A stretch of DNA of 10,726 bases from a virus (IMGVR_UViG_3300016702_000415), one strand, 5' to 3'. Shown: positions 1 through 5,202, numbered from the stretch's first letter. Numbers and translations are program-made. The notes: a model not told the origin generated them from the letters alone.

Positions 1-7
1 AGATCCG

Positions 8-40
8 TTGCATGTAGAGCCTTGTGCTCCGTGCATAAAG
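8..40 (+). promoter_or_regulatory. Possible sigma70-like promoter for the first tRNA: TTGCAT at 8-13, AT-rich CATAAA near 34-39, tRNA 5-prime end at 46
   Basis: Hexamer resemblance only. Spacing of about 20 nt is suboptimal. Confidence 0.2.
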
Positions 41-45
41 CCCTT

Positions 46-120
46 CGGGATGTAGCCTAGAGGTCAGGCACGTGATTTGGGATCACGGCCACGCAGGTTC
101 GAGTCCTGCCATCCCGACCA
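46..120 (+). tRNA. tRNA-Pro (anticodon TGG), 72 nt plus encoded CCA
   Basis: Hand-folded canonical cloverleaf. Acceptor is CGGGATG/CATCCCG. D-stem is GCCT/AGGC. Anticodon stem CGTGA/TCACG encloses loop TTTGGGA with U33 and G37. T-arm is GCAGG-TTCGAGT-CCTGC. Discriminator is A, followed by CCA. Confidence 0.85.
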
Positions 121-124
121 AAAT

Positions 125-201
125 CAGGGAGTAGCGCAGTCTGGTAGCGTGCTCCGTTCGGATCGGAGAAGTCGGTGGTTCAAATCCACCCTCCCTGACC
201 A
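125..201 (+). tRNA. tRNA-Pro (anticodon CGG), 74 nt plus CCA
   Basis: Acceptor is CAGGGAG/CTCCCTG. D-arm is GCGC-AGTCTGGTA-GCGT. Anticodon stem CTCCG/CGGAG encloses loop TTCGGAT. T-arm is GGTGG-TTCAAAT-CCACC. CCA is encoded. Confidence 0.85.
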
Positions 202-224
202 AATTCTTGTAGTAGGAGGCCGTC

Positions 225-614
225 GTGAAGAAGAAAACGTTGCGTGACGAATTGATAAAGCAAGCACTGAACGAGATCAACCCGGTTGACATCGTGGAGT
301 ATGTGCAAGCTAACTACGACACGCTTGGTAAGTCTTCTTTCAACGGCCAAGAGATTGTCATCGTCCTGGAAATCAGAAATGACGATGAAGGATATGGCAA
401 TCACTCGTATGAAGGCGTTGGTGTAGATGGCGACGGAAAGGTCTTCTACTGTTTCTCGTCCGGGTGTTCTTGTACCGGCGAATGTGGTATCGAAGGTCCG
501 CACGGCCACGACCTGACGTTGAAGAAGTTTGAAGTAAATGGTAATGCGTTTGACTTATCCAACATCGACGTAGAGACATTGAAGTCGATTCAAGTGGATT
601 TCAGCGATTACTAG
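225..614 (+). CDS. Hypothetical 129-aa protein with a C-terminal Cys cluster (CFSSGCSCTGECGI). GTG start.
   Basis: The ORF is preceded by a strong Shine-Dalgarno TAGGAGG at 213-219, 5 nt before GTG at 225. Stop is TAG at 612-614. I recognise no family. Confidence 0.55.
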   Translation: MKKKTLRDELIKQALNEINPVDIVEYVQANYDTLGKSSFNGQEIVIVLEIRNDDEGYGNHSYEGVGVDGDGKVFYCFSSGCSCTGECGIEGPHGHDLTLKKFEVNGNAFDLSNIDVETLKSIQVDFSDY

Positions 615-702
615 ACGGAGATAGAGTGGATTGGCGGCGTGAACACTGTAACTTGGACTGTGGGAACCGCCACAAGTTATTTGACAATCGAAAAAGTTTT
701 AT

Positions 703-781
703 AGCCGGGTGATGCAATTTTGGTAGACATCCTATACTCAGAATGTAGGTCTTGTGGGTTCGAGTCCCATCCCGGCTACCA
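703..781 (+). tRNA. Leu-like tRNA lacking the long variable arm (anticodon CAG), 76 nt plus CCA
   Basis: Acceptor is AGCCGGG/CCCGGCT, 7 bp. The Leu-type D-arm has a 3-4 bp stem and a long loop CAATTTTGGTAGA. Anticodon stem CCTATA/TGTAGG encloses loop CTCAGAA with U33, CAG and A37. The variable loop is only 4-5 nt. T-arm is GTGGG-TTCGAGT-CCCAT. Discriminator is A, followed by CCA. Confidence 0.6.
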
Positions 782-865
782 AGTTTGTGCGCTTCGGATG
801 ACGGAACTGGCATACGTTGTATTGAGTTCCCCGAAAGTTCTCTTTACTGTGGATCTGAGATGACC

Positions 866-921
866 ACTGCTGGCAGAGGCGGGACGCAGAGTCCTTGGGA
901 GTTCGAGTCTCCCTCCAGAAA
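866..921 (+). pseudogene. tRNA pseudogene fragment (decayed copy of the CAG Leu-like tRNA)
   Basis: A D-loop remnant CTGGCAGAGG is present. The anticodon hairpin GGGAC-GCAGA-GTCCT is truncated to a 5-nt loop that still contains CAG. The T-arm GGGAG-TTCGAGT-CTCCC is intact. The 3-prime acceptor strand TCCAGAA has no complementary 5-prime strand and there is no CCA. Confidence 0.4.
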
Positions 922-949
922 ATCTGCACATAAGCGCACATTGATTTTT

Positions 950-1143
950 GAGGCAGTAGCTCAACCTGGACAGAGCGCACTAAAACGGAGCGTGGTCCAT
1001 AGCAATGGTTCCAGAAGCACCGAAAAGAGAAATGGAACTCTGACGCCTGTGTGACTCAGGTTGGCTCTACGGAGCGTAGGGAAGCGGGTCATCCAAAGCT
1101 ATGATCGAAAGATGTACGGGTTCAAATCCCGTCTGCCTCACCA
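950..1143 (+). ncRNA. Interrupted or intron-like tRNA gene: Ile-like 5-prime acceptor and D-arm, roughly 135 nt of hairpin-rich insert, then T-arm, 3-prime acceptor and CCA
   Basis: GAGGCAG at 950-956 is perfectly complementary to CTGCCTC at 1133-1139. A canonical D-arm TAGCTCAACCTGGACAGAGCG at 957-977 resembles tRNA-Ile/Met-type D-arms. The T-arm ACGGG-TTCAAAT-CCCGT at 1116-1132 is followed by discriminator A and CCA. No anticodon arm can be folded. The intervening roughly 135 nt contains several hairpins: CTACG-GAG-CGTAG, GTTCCA/TGGAAC, and ATC-GAAA-GAT. Confidence 0.4.
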
Positions 1144-1176
1144 TTTCGTCCTACTGACTGTTATCTAAATAGGAAT

Positions 1177-1267
1177 AGAGGGCTGACAGAGCGGCAATGT
1201 GCCGGTCTTGAAAACCGTGGCCTACCTGATGAGGGTAGCGGGAGTTCAATCCTCCCGCCCTCTGCCA
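1177..1267 (+). tRNA. tRNA-Ser (anticodon TGA), class II, 88 nt plus CCA
   Basis: Acceptor is AGAGGGC/GCCCTCT. The anticodon loop is CTTGAAA. A long variable arm is present (CTACC...GGTAG). T-arm is GGGAG-TTCAATC-CTCCC. Discriminator is G, followed by CCA. Confidence 0.8.
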
Positions 1268-1273
1268 AATTTT

Positions 1274-1771
1274 ATGGGAAGACCAATTAGTCCGACAAGT
1301 TATCGACAACTTGCATTGAAAGAAGGATGCACTAAGTCAACCATTGGTTATCGACTTGGGCGTGAAACGAAATTTCATGGGCATTGTCAGCAATGTGGAC
1401 GAGAGTTGAATAGTAAGCGGAAAATACGCTTTTGTAATTCCAAATGCTATGCTGATTATCTCTATGAGAAGTACATTAGAGAGTGGAAATCGGGGCAGAT
1501 CGGTGGCGGAAGTAGTACAGGTGATGTGAGTGGACATGTGCGCCGATTTTTGTTTTCAAAGTATGAAAATCGTTGTAGTAAATGTGGATGGGCCGAAATC
1601 AATCCAACTACGGGGTTGGTTCCGCTTGAAGTCAATCACATTGATGGAAATTGCTCTAATCACATTGAAAAAAATTTGGAGTTGATATGTCCAAATTGTC
1701 ATTCCTTGACACCGACATTTCGTAGTTTGAATAAGAGAAGTAATCGAAAGCGTAAAAGTTTATGTCAGTAG
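1274..1771 (+). CDS. HNH endonuclease, 165 aa, with an N-terminal zinc ribbon
   Basis: The tiled ORF 1199-1771 begins inside the tRNA. The first in-frame ATG after the tRNA is at 1274. The HNH motif reads [25 protein letters not shown]. Upstream Cys pairs are CQQCG...CNSKC and CSKCG. Stop is TAG. Confidence 0.75.
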
Positions 1772-1837
1772 GCTTGGCAGCTACGAGCGACGGCTCACCA
1801 CCGGGATCGTTACCCGGCACGCATGTAACAGTGTGTG

Positions 1838-1878
1838 GTTTTGGACGGATTCAGGTTCGATTCCTGACTACTGGCTCA
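1838..1878 (+). pseudogene. tRNA 3-prime fragment (T-arm plus 3-prime acceptor strand, no CCA)
   Basis: TCAGG-TTCGATT-CCTGA is followed by CTACTGG. No convincing complementary 5-prime strand or anticodon arm lies within 80 nt. Upstream TGGTTTTGGACGGA resembles a decayed Leu-type D-loop. Confidence 0.35.
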
Positions 1879-1883
1879 GTTTT

Positions 1884-1969
1884 AGCCGGGTGGTGGAATG
1901 GCAGACACGCAGCGTTGAGGTCGCTGTGTCCGCAAGGACGTGTGGGTTCAAATCCCATCCTGGCTACCA
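1884..1969 (+). tRNA. tRNA-Leu (anticodon GAG), canonical class II, 83 nt plus CCA
   Basis: Acceptor is AGCCGGG/CCTGGCT with one G-U pair. Anticodon stem CAGCG/CGCTG encloses loop TTGAGGT with G37. The long variable arm is GTCC-GCAA-GGAC. T-arm is GTGGG-TTCAAAT-CCCAT. Discriminator is A, followed by CCA. Confidence 0.8.
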
Positions 1970-1981
1970 AGTTTTTGTTGA

Positions 1982-2059
1982 TGCCATGTATCCCAATTGG
2001 CAGAGGAAGCAGGTCGAGAACCTGTGAATGTGTGGGTTCGACTCCCACCGTGGCAACCA
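1982..2059 (+). tRNA. Leu-like tRNA lacking the long variable arm (anticodon GAG, C at position 33), 75 nt plus CCA
   Basis: Acceptor is TGCCATG/CGTGGCA. The Leu-type D-arm is TCC-CAATTGGCAGA-GGA. Anticodon stem GCAGG/CCTGT encloses loop TCGAGAA. The variable loop is 6 nt. T-arm is GTGGG-TTCGACT-CCCAC. Discriminator is A, followed by CCA. Confidence 0.55.
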
Positions 2060-2060
2060 T

Positions 2061-2137
2061 CAGGGAGTAGCGCAGTCTGGTAGCGTGTCCGCTTTGGAAG
2101 CGGAAAGTCGCTGGTTCGAGTCCAGCCTCCCTGACCA
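2061..2137 (+). tRNA. tRNA-Pro (anticodon TGG), 74 nt plus CCA
   Basis: The acceptor and D-arm are identical to the tRNA at 125-201 (CAGGGAGTAGCGCAGTCTGGTAGCGTG ... CTCCCTGACCA). Anticodon stem TCCGC/GCGGA encloses loop TTTGGAA. T-arm is GCTGG-TTCGAGT-CCAGC. Confidence 0.8.
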
Positions 2138-2162
2138 AATTTCGGATGCTAGATACGTGTGT

Positions 2163-2513
2163 ATGCCGGTCAAGCAATCCGCCGCCGCTGAGAAGCGGTC
2201 TAAAAAACGTGCTGAACTTCGTGCTTGGATTGCTGACTACAAGCGCACGCTGTCATGTAGTCGATGTGGGTTCAACCATCCGGCTGCTTTGCAATTCCAT
2301 CATACTGGTGCCGGTGAGAAGAAATTTGAGATTGGATCTGCTGTGATGCTGCAAAAATCGCTCAAGCAGGTCAAAGAAGAGATCGCAAAATGTGAATGCG
2401 TCTGTGCCAACTGTCATGCCGTTCATCACTACGACGAGCGGATGCTCCTGGAAGCCGATAGACAGGCTGAAGAAATGGAGTATAATGAGTTGGTAGAGGA
2501 AGAAGAATTTTAG
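2163..2513 (+). CDS. HNH endonuclease, 116 aa
   Basis: The first in-frame ATG after the tRNA is at 2163. Motifs are CSRCG and QFHH...CECVCANCHAVHH. The TAG stop at 2511-2513 overlaps the first base of the next tRNA. Confidence 0.7.
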   Translation: MPVKQSAAAEKRSKKRAELRAWIADYKRTLSCSRCGFNHPAALQFHHTGAGEKKFEIGSAVMLQKSLKQVKEEIAKCECVCANCHAVHHYDERMLLEADRQAEEMEYNELVEEEEF

Positions 2514-2599
2514 GCCGGATGGAGGAATTGGCAGTCTCGCTTGCCTTAGAAGCAAGTGCCCGGAAGGGCGTGAGGGTTCGACTCCCTCTTCGGCCACCA
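2513..2599 (+). tRNA. tRNA-Leu (anticodon TAG), class II, 84 nt plus CCA
   Basis: Acceptor is GGCCGGA/TTCGGCC. The Leu D-arm is GAG-GAATTGGCAGT-CTC. Anticodon stem CTTGC/GCAAG encloses loop CTTAGAA. The variable arm is TGCCCGGAAGGGCGT. T-arm is GAGGG-TTCGACT-CCCTC. Discriminator is A, followed by CCA. Confidence 0.8.
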
Positions 2600-2603
2600 A
2601 GTT

Positions 2604-2798
2604 ATGATGTGTTGCAACGAAGAGTTTGTGGGGCGACGGTGCCCGAAATGTGGGACGCTTCCGAAAGAGAACGAGCCGAGACCGGCTTCTGTCGAAGAGA
2701 TCATTCTCTCCAGAAAGTTTCAGAGTCGGCTGTTCACGTCGAAGCATCCGAAGACGGTTCGGTTCTCCAGAGATGAGGTACCGTGGGACCAGTGGTAG
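2604..2798 (+). CDS. Possible small zinc-ribbon protein, 64 aa (MMCC...CPKCG)
   Basis: ATG lies 5 nt after the tRNA CCA. A CxxC pair is present. A competing ORF exists in another frame, so the call is weak. Confidence 0.3.
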   Translation: MMCCNEEFVGRRCPKCGTLPKENEPRPASVEEIILSRKFQSRLFTSKHPKTVRFSRDEVPWDQW

Positions 2799-2812
2799 GA
2801 ACTTCGTCAGAA

Positions 2813-2959
2813 ATGCCCTGTACGTGCGAAGAGAAGGGCGTAGAGGCTTGCGAGAAGGTCTGGTGGTGTTGTGATTGTCGCCGTGAGATGCGGCACCGCT
2901 ACGGGGATCTATTCGCCAGATGCCGGGAATGCTGGTCGGAGATTGAAGCGAATTTGTAA
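2813..2959 (+). CDS. Possible small Cys-rich protein, 48 aa (MPCTCEEKGVEACEKVWWCCDCRREMRHRYGDLFARCRECWSEIEANL)
   Basis: Hand translation of the third frame, which the ORF track omits because it is under 60 aa. Ten Cys residues occur in CxC and CxxC spacing. The ORF ends 4 nt before the next tRNA. Confidence 0.3.
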   Translation: MPCTCEEKGVEACEKVWWCCDCRREMRHRYGDLFARCRECWSEIEANL

Positions 2960-2962
2960 TGT

Positions 2963-3049
2963 GGCCGGGTGGAGGAATTGGCAGTCTCGCTTGCCTCAAA
3001 AGCAAGTGCTGGCAACAGCGTGAGGGTTCGACTCCCTCCCCGGCCACCA
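2963..3049 (+). tRNA. tRNA-Leu (anticodon CAA), class II, 84 nt plus CCA
   Basis: Near-identical backbone to 2513-2599. Acceptor is GGCCGGG/CCCGGCC. The anticodon loop is CTCAAAA. The variable arm is TGCTGGCAACAGCGT. T-arm is GAGGG-TTCGACT-CCCTC. Confidence 0.8.
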
Positions 3050-3077
3050 AATTAGCAAACGTGGCGTGCGTATACAT

Positions 3078-3557
3078 ATGCGTATGCCAAAGAAGCACAA
3101 TAGGTATACGAAAGAGTTTTTGGAGCCGGTAGTAAAAGAAAGTGGATCGTGGGGCGACGTTTGTGAACGATGTGGAGTGAAGCGGGGATTTGGTGCAGAA
3201 AACTATCTCCGTAATGTGGCGATCAAATTTGAGATCGACTACTCTCATTTCAAAGGGCAAGGATGGGCACGAAATTTAATCTTTGACAAGAAGCCATTGG
3301 AGAAGTTTTTAGTTCTCCAATCAAAGATTACACGTTCTGAATTGCGCCGCCGTCTGATTCGAGATGGTTATAAGAAGGCTCAATGTGAAAAATGTGGATT
3401 GACGGAATGGTTGGGTGAGCCAATCGGATTGGAATTGCATCATACAAATCAGATTCCAGACGATAATAGGATTGAGAATTTGTTGGTCCTTTGTGCTAAC
3501 TGCCATACGGTTGCTGATAGAATCGCCCGCCGTCAACGAAAGTTTGAGTCAGGGTAG
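3078..3557 (+). CDS. HNH endonuclease, about 159 aa (an alternative GTG start exists at 3066)
   Basis: Motifs are CERCG and CEKCG...LELHHTNQIPDDNRIENLLVLCANCHTV. Stop is TAG at 3555-3557. Confidence 0.7.
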   Translation: MRMPKKHNRYTKEFLEPVVKESGSWGDVCERCGVKRGFGAENYLRNVAIKFEIDYSHFKGQGWARNLIFDKKPLEKFLVLQSKITRSELRRRLIRDGYKKAQCEKCGLTEWLGEPIGLELHHTNQIPDDNRIENLLVLCANCHTVADRIARRQRKFESG

Positions 3558-3571
3558 TTTAACGTGGAAAA

Positions 3572-3636
3572 ACCGGGGCGTACATTGGCGCTAGTTCAAA
3601 GCTAACCGATACGGGTTCGATGGTCCGTCCCTGGCT
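3572..3636 (+). pseudogene. Degenerate tRNA-like element (Leu-like CAA remnant): D-arm largely deleted, 8-nt T-loop, no CCA
   Basis: Acceptor-like helix is CCGGGG/CCCTGG. The anticodon hairpin GCTAG-TTCAAAG-CTAAC carries a CAA anticodon. The T-arm ACGGG-TTCGATGG-TCCGT has one extra G. The 3-prime tail is TCAA rather than CCA. Confidence 0.3.
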
Positions 3637-3743
3637 CAACAAATTATATGGTACCGCTTGTAGGTCCGTCTGAAGCTACTTGGCGACTAATACGAAAGTT
3701 GCGGAAGGCACCTATTAGCGTGAAAGTTCCAGAAGAAGTTTAT

Positions 3744-3822
3744 TGCCGTGTAGTCCAATTTGGCAGGAGACACCAGATTCAAAACCTGTACAGTGTGGGT
3801 TCGAGTCCCACCACGGCAACCA
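3744..3822 (+). tRNA. Leu-like tRNA lacking the long variable arm (anticodon CAA, weak anticodon stem), 76 nt plus CCA
   Basis: Acceptor is TGCCGTG/CACGGCA, a perfect 7 bp. The D-arm is TCC-AATTTGGCA-GGA. The anticodon loop is TTCAAAA, but only 3 bp (CAG/CTG) pair in the stem, so the gene may be partly decayed. T-arm is GTGGG-TTCGAGT-CCCAC. Discriminator is A, followed by CCA. Confidence 0.5.
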
Positions 3823-3829
3823 AAGTTTT

Positions 3830-3906
3830 GGCCCCGTACTCCAATTGGCAGAGGGAACCGGCTTAAACCCGGCACAGTGTGGGTTCGACGCCCACCGGGG
3901 CTACCA
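3830..3906 (+). tRNA. Leu-like tRNA lacking the long variable arm (anticodon TAA), 74 nt plus CCA
   Basis: Acceptor is GGCCCCG/CGGGGCT with a first G-U pair. The D-arm is TCC-AATTGGCAGAG-GGA. Anticodon stem CCGG/CCGG encloses loop CTTAAAC. The variable loop is 6 nt. T-arm is GTGGG-TTCGACG-CCCAC. Discriminator is A, followed by CCA. Confidence 0.55.
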
Positions 3907-3913
3907 AGTTATT

Positions 3914-4210
3914 ATGCGAAATCCTCAAAAGGGTAACAGAGTCGAAATCATGACCGGCAAGCACCAAGGCCAGATAGGAACTGTCATTGGCCTGGAAGCG
4001 AATGGAAGGGCGCTTGTTCAACTTCCAGGACTGCCGTATGAACGCTCTTATGCAAAAGAGCACTTAGAATTCAGAGGTCGTGGCGAACAGCAATTGTCCA
4101 CGGGTGAGTCGAGACGAAAGCGGATGCAAGCAATGGTAGCGCAAGGTAAGATGTGTCCTTCGTATCCTCACTCATGCAGCGGCGAATGCGGGATTAAACA
4201 AGATGACTAG
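3914..4210 (+). CDS. Hypothetical 98-aa protein with a KOW-like N-terminus and a C-terminal CSGECGI Cys motif
   Basis: The tiled ORF 3743-4210 starts inside tRNAs. The first ATG after the tRNA is at 3914. VEIMTGKHQGQIGTVIGLE resembles a KOW motif. The C-terminal MCPSYPHSCSGECGI matches the motif in the 225-614 protein. Confidence 0.45.
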   Translation: MRNPQKGNRVEIMTGKHQGQIGTVIGLEANGRALVQLPGLPYERSYAKEHLEFRGRGEQQLSTGESRRKRMQAMVAQGKMCPSYPHSCSGECGIKQDD

Positions 4211-4553
4211 GAAAGAAATGGTTCGCACACTTCTCAGGTTGCGTGACCCGGCGAATGAACAGGCAGTACTTGATGAAGTGTATGCTGAATTTCAGAGTGA
4301 ATATTACCCTGGTCGCCGCCAGTTGAACCGTTGCGGCCATTACAACTGCGAGTATCACGGGCTGTGCGCTGTGGTTGAATTGACGAACATTCTCAAGATG
4401 GAATTGAAATATTTGGAAGATCAGGACGACGACAATGTTTTGGGTAGTGCAGGAAAATATCAAAGACGAAGCGACATACGACCATTTCATCCAGGCACTC
4501 TATGCGTTGAACATAGAGCACACACTGGTGAAGGTAGTACCGTTCTCGCATGA
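4203..4553 (+). CDS. Hypothetical Cys/His-rich protein (CGHYNCEYHGLC). Its 3-prime end overlaps the next gene by about 119 nt, so the true extent is uncertain.
   Basis: The first roughly 78 aa look protein-like. The tail past 4435 looks like an out-of-frame read of the ATP-grasp gene. Confidence 0.3.
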   Translation: MTRKEMVRTLLRLRDPANEQAVLDEVYAEFQSEYYPGRRQLNRCGHYNCEYHGLCAVVELTNILKMELKYLEDQDDDNVLGSAGKYQRRSDIRPFHPGTLCVEHRAHTGEGSTVLA

Positions 4554-5202
4554 TGTTATTCCTGATGTGAATCCCACAGGCCGTGTGATGGTATGGGGTT
4601 CGACTACATTGGATCTTGTTGCCAAGAACAAGGGTTGGAAACCTGGGACATTTTTGAACGAGAATTTCGATCAGCGTATCTGGAGAACGAAGTATCCGAC
4701 GTTGAACGATGACGCTGAGATCCATGAGTTTGGTTCCATTCCGGCATTCGAGGGAACGAGATTTATCCGGCCCGTGCATGACATGAAAGTGTTCGCCGGG
4801 ATGGTGATCCACAACGTTGAATTGGAGCAGTGGAAGGAAACCATTCAGCGATATTCGGATGGCTACATTACGTTGCGCCCGGAGACGCCTGTGAGCATTT
4901 CCAGCGTCAAGGACATTGAGATGGAGTGGCGCTTCTTTGTGGTGTCTGGCAAGGTCGTGGCTGGCTCCAGGTACCGGCAGTGGGGATTGTCGGACCATCG
5001 GCGGATTTATGCAGCATCGGAGCCGTGGAAGTTTGCACAGGAAATGGTAGATCGCTGGCAACCAAATGAAGCGTTCGTAATTGACTTGGCGAAGGAACAC
5101 AATGATCCTTCATTCAAGGTGATCGAAGTGAATTGTATCAACTCAGCCGGGTTCTACGAATGTGACATGAAGGCCGTGATCGAGGCAATTGAGAGGTTAT
5201 GA
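4435..5202 (+). CDS. ATP-grasp fold protein (phage-type, DUF4343/RimK-related-like), 255 aa
   Basis: The N-terminus MFWVVQEN... and the motif EWRFFVVSGKVVAGSRY resemble ATP-grasp strand motifs. The family assignment is from memory, not from a search. The stop overlaps the next start as ATGA. Confidence 0.55.
   Translation: MFWVVQENIKDEATYDHFIQALYALNIEHTLVKVVPFSHDVIPDVNPTGRVMVWGSTTLDLVAKNKGWKPGTFLNENFDQRIWRTKYPTLNDDAEIHEFGSIPAFEGTRFIRPVHDMKVFAGMVIHNVELEQWKETIQRYSDGYITLRPETPVSISSVKDIEMEWRFFVVSGKVVAGSRYRQWGLSDHRRIYAASEPWKFAQEMVDRWQPNEAFVIDLAKEHNDPSFKVIEVNCINSAGFYECDMKAVIEAIERL

Follow-up and report, generated by a model that had tools for sequence, protein, structure and literature searches.

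YrlA-type bacterial Y RNAs are mimics of transfer RNA (tRNA) that associate with Ro60/Rsr and are encoded beside Ro60 (Chen et al., 2014, PMC4201824), and the YrlA RNA of M. smegmatis undergoes cleavage by RNase P and addition of CCA (PMC4201824). In addition, "enigmatic introns" have been reported in tRNA genes of the Lak megaphages and other huge phages (Devoto et al., bioRxiv 10.1101/356790). We analyzed a tRNA-like element at positions 950-1143 of a viral DNA stretch of 10,726 nucleotides (nt) from IMGVR_UViG_3300016702_000415, referred to below as the window. A first-pass annotation had described this element as two tRNA gene halves separated by an insert and had offered three options for it, namely a tRNA with an intron, a tRNA disrupted by a mobile element, and a tRNA-like structured non-coding RNA, with the remark that no standard explanation was a clean fit. 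The last option was supported and the first two were not: all 191 nt form a single conserved RNA in which every helix covaries. We conclude that positions 950-1143 probably encode one intact, stable non-coding RNA of ~191 nt plus CCA that belongs to a large tRNA-shaped family.

The RNA retains the top half and elbow of a tRNA, i.e., a 7-base-pair (bp) acceptor stem, a D arm, a T arm, and the 15-48 tertiary pair, all read on the plus strand. The 5' acceptor strand GAGGCAG (950-956) forms seven of seven Watson-Crick pairs with CTGCCTC (1133-1139), as originally annotated, and compensatory changes occur at all seven pairs across the family. U957 and A958 follow directly, and the D arm GCTC-AACCTGGACA-GAGC (959-976) has a stem of 959-962 with 973-976, in which all four pairs covary. 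The D loop AACCUGGACA carries G18 and G19, and A964 occupies position 15. The T arm ACGGG-TTCAAAT-CCCGT (1116-1132; UUCAAAU in the RNA) was established by sequence reading and by family covariation analysis, and it is preceded by U1115 at position 48, the Levitt partner of A964. Direct reading of 1133-1143 gives the 3' acceptor strand CUGCCUC, the discriminator A1140, and an encoded CCA at 1141-1143. The canonical D and T arms and the encoded CCA of the first-pass annotation were thus all confirmed in the sequence. The spacing from the D arm to the T arm is 139 nt, compared with ~22 nt in an ordinary tRNA. The element was called neither by ARAGORN at default settings nor by Rfam at gathering thresholds, and its closest alignment to the Rfam tRNA model (RF00005) reached 15.3 bits against a gathering score of 29, with the wrong 5' half.

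Exact 21- to 32-mers of the insert, the 5' half, and the 3' end were unmatched in IMG/VR and GTDB genomes, megablast of the whole window against GenBank phages returned a tRNA-Leu match only, and blastn against complete E. coli genomes returned nothing. The first homologue came from a borderline blastn match (E = 9e-3) between window positions 972-1024 and an unannotated gap of Streptomyces phage Comrade. This gap holds the same architecture with a wholly different yet complementary acceptor stem (GTCCCTG/CAGGGAC), a D arm, and a T arm, and it shares three blocks with the window: a stem with a AAAAACGGAG loop, GGTTGCAGAAGCACCGAA, and GTAGGGAAGCGCGT. Copies were present in 26 Streptomyces phages, always amid tRNA genes and annotated in none. 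A pattern scan with the invariant block and the T loop as the query identified 43 IMG/VR viral contigs and at least 120 bacterial genome contigs. The bacterial carriers among the matches listed include Bacillus, Priestia, Lysinibacillus, Streptomyces, Kitasatospora, Actinoplanes, Corallococcus and other Myxococcota, Deinococcus, Armatimonadota, Clostridia, and a cyanobacterium. With the boundaries set by a script, 112 distinct full-length members were obtained; they range from 152 to 280 nt, and the mode lies near 190-197 nt. The family therefore occurs in phage tRNA arrays and, mostly alone, across bacteria of many phyla; in free-living bacteria the family domain is kept in a stand-alone gene. 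No Rfam family matched this RNA, and no description of its architecture was found in the part of the literature that we covered.

A covariance model, R1, was built from nine short members of other genomes with the window excluded. It matched window positions 950-1140 end to end (model positions 1-155) with 84.7 bits and E = 2e-19, compared with at most 28 bits for the ordinary tRNAs of the window. Searches with R1 collected 83 members in 100 sources, and 94% of the cells in the resulting alignment were paired, versus 71-72% in column shuffles (0/500 as high); the value fell to 48% or less when the partners were slid. Compensatory changes were detected at every pair of the acceptor, D, anticodon-position, and closing helices and in the T helix as well. 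The Levitt 15-48 pair was A-U in 77, G-C in 30, and another combination in 5 of the 112 members, and on the R1 alignment it was AU in 37, GC in 27, and GU in 11. Mutual information revealed two more pairs in the core of the extra domain (GC 46/CG 10/UU 24 and AU 48/GC 19). In bacteria as in phages, no part of the molecule is better conserved than this domain.

In place of the anticodon arm, there is a small hairpin whose AAAAC-type loop is conserved. In the window, the hairpin spans 977-994 in the covariance model alignment, with a stem of 978-981 and 990-994 (C978-G994, A979-U993, C980-G992, and U981-G990, with C991 bulged) and the 8-nt loop AAAACGGA at 982-989. Relatives have a homologous covarying stem of 4-5 bp (CAGU/ACUG, CCGU/ACGG, GCUG/CAGC, and others), and the AAAAC loop motif is conserved in the family. 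Since the loop has 8 nt and an A instead of U at position 33, it is not an anticodon loop, and the RNA should be unable to decode. Across the members, the loops at this position are 8-15 nt long, start with AAAAC, and lack U33; a canonical loop is present in none. The earlier statement that no anticodon arm can be folded is correct only in part, since the position of the arm is in fact occupied by a hairpin.

The extra domain is modeled as a single long irregular helix that replaces the variable loop. Exhaustive in silico deletions showed that ARAGORN accepts a tRNA-like cloverleaf only when ~994-1112 is removed, which places the extra RNA at the variable-loop position (~995-1113) and not in the anticodon loop. 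In the model, the closing helix is followed by GG/CC, UGC/GCG, a 4-nt RGAN bulge, and GC/GC, and then by an A versus GAA internal loop, CC/GG, a G-A apposition, an A-U pair, and a variable distal part. The closing helix pairs CAUAGC (998-1003) with GCUAUG (1098-1103); compensatory changes were found at all six of its model pairs, and its mutual information is the highest in the family. The invariant core is formed by a 5' strand GGUUCCAGAAGCACCGAA at 1007-1024 and a 3' strand GUAGGGAAGCGGGUCAUCC at 1076-1094, which pair with each other. Their consensus sequences GGUU.C.GA.GCACCG and AGGGAAGCG.GUU..C are at least 90% conserved across phyla among the 83 members, and the window matches both (GGUUCCAGAAGCACCG at 1007-1022 and AGGGAAGCGGGU at 1078-1089). 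The core pairs in the window are GG 1007-1008 with CC 1093-1094, UCC 1010-1012 with GGG 1086-1088, GC 1017-1018 with GC 1084-1085, CC 1020-1021 with GG 1079-1080, and A1023 with U1077, and covariation within the core was seen at the alignment columns of 1011-1087 and 1023-1077. The distal part in the window (1025-1075) is a lineage-specific extension of ~50 nt, which constitutes a 50-nt insertion relative to the covariance model and forms three hairpins in a constrained fold (1026-1041, 1045-1061, and 1064-1075); between classes, this part ranges from ~16 to 80 nt or more and varies in sequence. The GAAA-tetraloop hairpin reported in the first-pass annotation is present at 1104-1113 (AUC-GAAA-GAU), between the domain and the T arm. 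Such a mini-hairpin often lies 3' of the domain in the family; phage Kela and locus L064 have an equivalent GAAA hairpin at this very place, and the Bacillota class has a related one. The 12-codon open reading frame noted earlier does exist (1005-1043); we consider it incidental because it overlaps the invariant RNA core and its ATG is not conserved, the corresponding position in relatives being AUGG, ACGG, AGGG, or AAGG.

In loci where the neighboring tRNA genes encode CCA, the element also carries CCA in six of seven cases; three of these CCA loci (the window, L012, and L013) are copies of the window's own phage, so that the independent count is four of five. Where the neighboring tRNA genes have no CCA, the element also lacks it in 24 of 25 loci. 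The discriminator is A in 88 of the 112 members, and the first pair is G1-C72 in 95. A tRNA gene is located within 300 nt of 24 of the 30 viral members and of 9 of the 82 bacterial members, and no conserved neighboring protein family was found in the bacterial loci. Judging from these patterns, the gene of the element probably acts like a tRNA gene at both its 5' and 3' ends.

The sole recurrent neighbor found for this RNA is Ro60. TROVE/Ro-like genes lie on the same strand in seven loci (L028, L058, L125, L030, L161, L062, and L046), at distances of 44, 45, 115, and 324 nt and 2.3-3.0 kb from the RNA; the adjacency at 44-324 nt concerns four independent loci. The TROVE domain in L030 was recognized by Pfam with E = 2.5e-21, and in the Streptomyces phages Alone3, LuckySocke, GiJojo, and pSt2308 a gene annotated as "Ro-like RNA binding protein" lies downstream of the RNA at 2.4-3 kb. 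In GiJojo and in Gordonia phage Neville, Ro is immediately preceded by classical YrlA-like units. Read by eye, the D arm of the GiJojo classical unit precedes a hairpin with the loop CAAAAC, and its T arm has a GAUGC..GUAG..GUUACUUC module on the 5' side. If this unit is read as a circle, its order of modules by eye matches that of the new family, with the break elsewhere.

As a separate observation, both GiJojo (9319-9795; L191:2520-2996) and Neville (L190:2480-3040) contain, immediately 5' of the Ro-like gene, several tandem Y-RNA-like units starting with (C)GAUGCG(U/A)AG...GUUACUUC. One of them has a full T arm, a 7-bp acceptor hairpin, and a D arm, and all are unannotated in GenBank and Rfam.

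The new RNA resembles YrlA in its tRNA-like T arm, D arm, and acceptor-like stem, in the covarying Levitt pair, in its occurrence in bacteria and phages, and, for some members only, in a same-strand TROVE/Ro60 gene no more than 4 kb away. Inspection by eye shows the D arm followed by a CAAAAC-loop hairpin in both the GiJojo Y RNA and the new RNA. In contrast, the order of YrlA is 5'-Ro stem-V-T-acceptor hairpin-D-3', so that the molecule ends in the Ro-binding stem and its acceptor is closed, whereas the order of the new family is acceptor-D-hairpin-big helix-T-acceptor, with free tRNA-type ends and a CCA that is often encoded. Rfam has no model that matches the classical YrlA region, and absence from Rfam therefore does not separate the new RNA from YrlA. 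Based on the Ro60 neighbors, the nature of YrlA RNAs as Ro60-adjacent tRNA mimics, and the order of modules in GiJojo, we favor a Y-RNA-like tRNA mimic with tRNA-type ends; this is our best guess and is unproven. The likeliest partner is tentatively the Ro60/Rsr ring protein, in which case the RNA would be a Y-RNA-type tRNA mimic that is related to YrlA and ends at the acceptor stem.

According to this scheme, the RNA would be transcribed together with the tRNA array, and its ends would be made by the tRNA-processing enzymes, with RNase P acting at the 5' end and CCA either encoded or added at the 3' end. It would fold into an L shape incapable of reading codons and would present the invariant helix as a docking site for a conserved partner; a core that is nearly invariant across distant phyla implies that this partner is universal. 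Finally, the helix may bind Ro60, while the tRNA-like module may bring in a second factor that acts in RNA quality control or decay during infection.

Several observations weigh against this interpretation. Transcription, processing, aminoacylation, and protein binding of the RNA are all predictions drawn from sequence, and the minimum free energy fold of the window sequence differs from the family fold (-63.6 versus -47.9 kcal/mol). The Ro60 gene is absent from the 10.7-kb window and from the 22-kb syntenic locus of its 70%-identical relative, and it was found in just 2 of the 82 bacterial loci in the 8 kb covered. The BE-cluster Streptomyces phages (Comrade, Gilson, and others) contain the RNA and yielded no Ro-like match, while in Neville and Mx1, which have both Ro60 and classical Y RNAs, the new RNA is not near Ro. 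The actinophage Ro gene is itself located within a tRNA cluster, so part of the proximity could reflect a shared neighborhood. There is no significant alignment of YrlA to the new family outside the tRNA-like parts; when the classical Y RNA was permuted and compared with family members, pairwise scores were no better than those of shuffles, and nhmmer found nothing. Lastly, a Ro60 gene is not nearby in most members of the family, which also speaks for a role independent of Ro60.

Such a role could be linked to translation. The RNA would then be matured and aminoacylated like a tRNA and, without reading a codon, would act in a broadly tmRNA-like manner on the ribosome, an elongation factor, an aminoacyl-tRNA synthetase, or an aminoacyl-transferase, with the invariant helix binding a universal translation component or a small ligand. 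This explanation is unlikely in our assessment, even though the intact acceptor stem, the discriminator A, and the agreement of CCA with the neighboring tRNA genes are all in its favor. The RNA also accompanies complete tRNA sets in phages and some bacterial tRNA arrays, and riboswitch-like conservation of the core across phyla in the absence of a conserved neighboring gene would fit a universal partner. The likeness to transfer-messenger RNA (tmRNA, SsrA) consists in a tRNA-like acceptor/T-arm domain and a CCA end around a large non-tRNA insert and in the lack of an anticodon, and some large phages also encode tmRNA. However, the third acceptor pair in the window is G3-C70 (G952-C1137) rather than the alanine identity pair G3-U70, the D arm is canonical whereas the D-loop of tmRNA is reduced, and the new RNA has neither a ring of pseudoknots nor a conserved tag reading frame and measures ~190 nt versus ~350 nt. 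The mimicry is thus not tmRNA-like in detail. Neither ARAGORN nor the Rfam tmRNA models called the element as a tmRNA, the only match being one of 14.9 bits to tmRNA_permuted through the T arm. The extra helix between the anticodon-position stem and the T stem is also reminiscent of the variable arm of class II tRNAs (Leu, Ser, Tyr, and Sec), but it is 100-130 nt long versus 10-25 nt and contains invariant internal loops, while the anticodon loop is non-canonical and the D arm is of the class I type. No synthetase identity set was recognizable, and the adjacency of Ro60 at 44-324 nt in the four independent loci is left unexplained by a purely translational role.

An improbable alternative is that the RNA serves as a decoy or sponge in the conflict between phage and host, soaking up anti-phage enzymes that attack tRNA (anticodon nucleases, or CCA-end-modifying toxins of the MenT or CapRel type), or as an antidote on mobile elements. 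The occurrence in phage tRNA arrays would agree with this, as would the poorly conserved and often mobile-looking contexts of the bacterial copies (SSB, Rap phosphatase, DNA methylase, and DnaB-like loader genes), and an RNA with no anticodon loop would resist anticodon nucleases. On the other hand, a decoy has no need of an extra domain that is invariant from Deinococcus to Bacillota, and no toxin or defense gene is consistently adjacent. This explanation is speculative.

We regard it as very improbable that the element is a tRNA gene with an intron of a new self-splicing or protein-spliced kind, comparable to the Lak megaphage introns, from which splicing would yield a normal tRNA. Oversized tRNA genes do exist in large phages (bioRxiv 10.1101/356790); like the new RNA, they belong to very large phage genomes and are missed by standard tRNA finders. 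In a relative of the window's phage (L010), the anticodon loop of a tRNA is normal apart from a clean 50-nt insert, and the element itself, once 994-1112 is removed, is called tRNA-Arg(ACG) by ARAGORN at the default threshold. However, the loop left by this removal is still AAAACGGA, with 8 nt and A at position 33, the corresponding loops of other members have 11-15 nt, and removal of the block yields a normal anticodon loop in none of the ~110 members. The Lak inserts, which we compared by description only, interrupt assignable tRNAs (Phe, Gly, Thr, and Tyr), whereas no tRNA can be assigned here and the insert is a domain conserved across phyla. Its retention as a stand-alone gene in free-living bacteria also argues against an intron, and an intron-less version of the gene was not seen. 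The Rfam check proposed in the first-pass annotation was run on two members and gave no intron or ribozyme family match at E <= 10, including hammerhead, twister, hepatitis delta virus (HDV), and other ribozymes and group I and II introns; for the window, no tmRNA or other family was matched at this cutoff either. A call of "tRNA-Met(cat) with a 106-nt intron", obtained with the ARAGORN intron search at relaxed thresholds, was rejected, as it needs a stem with three of five pairs and a C at position 37.

The mobile-element option was likewise unsupported: the insert occurs only within the tRNA-like frame, this frame covaries around it, and no other copies are present in the window or related loci. 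The 9-nt direct repeat ACGGAGCGT (985-993 and 1069-1077) was examined as a target-site duplication and discarded, since removal of the interval restores no tRNA and the chance expectation of such a repeat is ~0.07. Two further candidates were dropped, namely a long-range complementarity between 782-860 and the insert, which was not above chance, and a likeness of the core by eye to loop E of 5S ribosomal RNA (rRNA) and to the L11-binding region of 23S rRNA, which was unsupported by Rfam scans. A tRNA pseudogene, formed by an insertion or by the decay of two tandem copies with matching outer halves, was a live option before the family was found given the tRNA remnants in the same array (792-921 and 1765-1876) and the scrambled tRNA halves in L001, but it is now scarcely credible, as the tRNA-core features of the element are all perfect where the real remnants lost pairing and CCA, and its interior is the best-conserved part across ~110 homologues, with covariation.

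If this picture holds, hundreds of bacterial and phage genomes, including the well-studied Bacillus, Priestia, and Streptomyces and curated actinophage genomes, would hold an unannotated structured RNA gene of ~190 nt that was overlooked by tRNA finders and Rfam. It would represent a third architecture that combines a tRNA body with a foreign functional domain, beside tmRNA and YrlA, and would provide a concrete and testable connection of Ro60/Y-RNA biology to phage tRNA arrays. It could also account for some of the "oversized" or "interrupted" tRNAs of huge phages and supply a model for annotating them. It is possible, with confidence well short of even, that this is an undescribed and widespread tRNA-shaped class with true tRNA ends and a riboswitch-like conserved domain, a circularly permuted cousin of YrlA that couples Ro60-type surveillance or another universal partner to the tRNA machinery, and that large phages have it in their tRNA arrays to reprogram RNA quality control or translation of the host. 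That the class has real biological weight is likewise possible rather than probable.

The element is located in a tRNA array that occupies 1-7411 of the window on one strand and contains 14 tRNAs identified by ARAGORN, all of them Pro, Leu, or Ser isoacceptors with an encoded CCA. Small HNH endonuclease genes are interspersed in the array (1274-1771, 3078-3557, and 6386-6808). The array also encodes a secreted-looking dual-specificity/tyrosine phosphatase and an ATP-grasp protein of the R2K clade (7425-7982 and 4435-5202). Downstream of the array is a gene for an 843-aa protein (8097-10628) with major vault protein (MVP) shoulder and vault-repeat domains, whose nearest relative (70% identical) is encoded on a 405-kb IMG/VR contig, which indicates an uncultured phage of very large size as the source. 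Homologues with 48-70% identity were found in other large viral contigs, and in Comrade a band-7-like gene is located 1.2 kb away from the RNA, which may be a coincidence. In the viral and metagenomic loci reached via the MVP-like protein, the intergenic content at the syntenic site differs from that of the window. Near-identical copies originate from peat-bog metagenomes. Five other peat-bog contigs have a locus that is 100% identical except for C-to-T at 1129, a strain polymorphism that turns a G-C pair of the T stem into G-U and retains the pairing. The contigs that encode the adjacent HNH protein are near-identical strains and gave no comparative signal.

Other tRNA-like oddities were noted in the array and in related loci. 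Just upstream of the element, positions 792-921 contain a decayed class II (Leu-like) tRNA remnant with an intact T arm (GGGAG-TTCGAGT-CTCCC), an acceptor paired at five of seven positions, no CCA, and ~42 extra nt at the anticodon-loop site, which ARAGORN sees only at a relaxed threshold. A 112-nt tRNA-like piece at 1765-1876 combines a TCAGTAG/CTACTGG acceptor with a good T arm at 1852-1868, the hairpin CCGGG-AUCGUUA-CCCGG, and another hairpin of 6 bp that resembles a variable arm. At its 5' end, this piece overlaps with the HNH gene (1274-1771) at the stop codon, and it scores 10 bits, outside the new family. In the tRNA at L010:600-722 (SDBT01074104.1), from a distant relative of the phage, the acceptor, the D and T arms, and the anticodon stem (ACUGA/UCAGU) are all perfect. 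The 50-nt insert of this tRNA lies immediately 3' of a complete UUUGGGA loop, repeats 8 nt of the D arm (GGUAGAGC), and looks like a true small insert or intron. At L007:4096-4197, a 102-nt tRNA-like gene that was not called has CUGUUAA (GUU) as its anticodon loop, and its variable region of 34 nt can be folded into two hairpins. On the 405-kb contig, the syntenic gap between tRNA-Leu(cag) and tRNA-Ser(tga) (L001:1780-1910) contains a tRNA 3' half (variable arm, T arm, and GCACTCG) 18 nt upstream of the matching 5' half (CGAGTGT and D arm), which represents a permuted tRNA gene or else a tandem pair of decayed copies.
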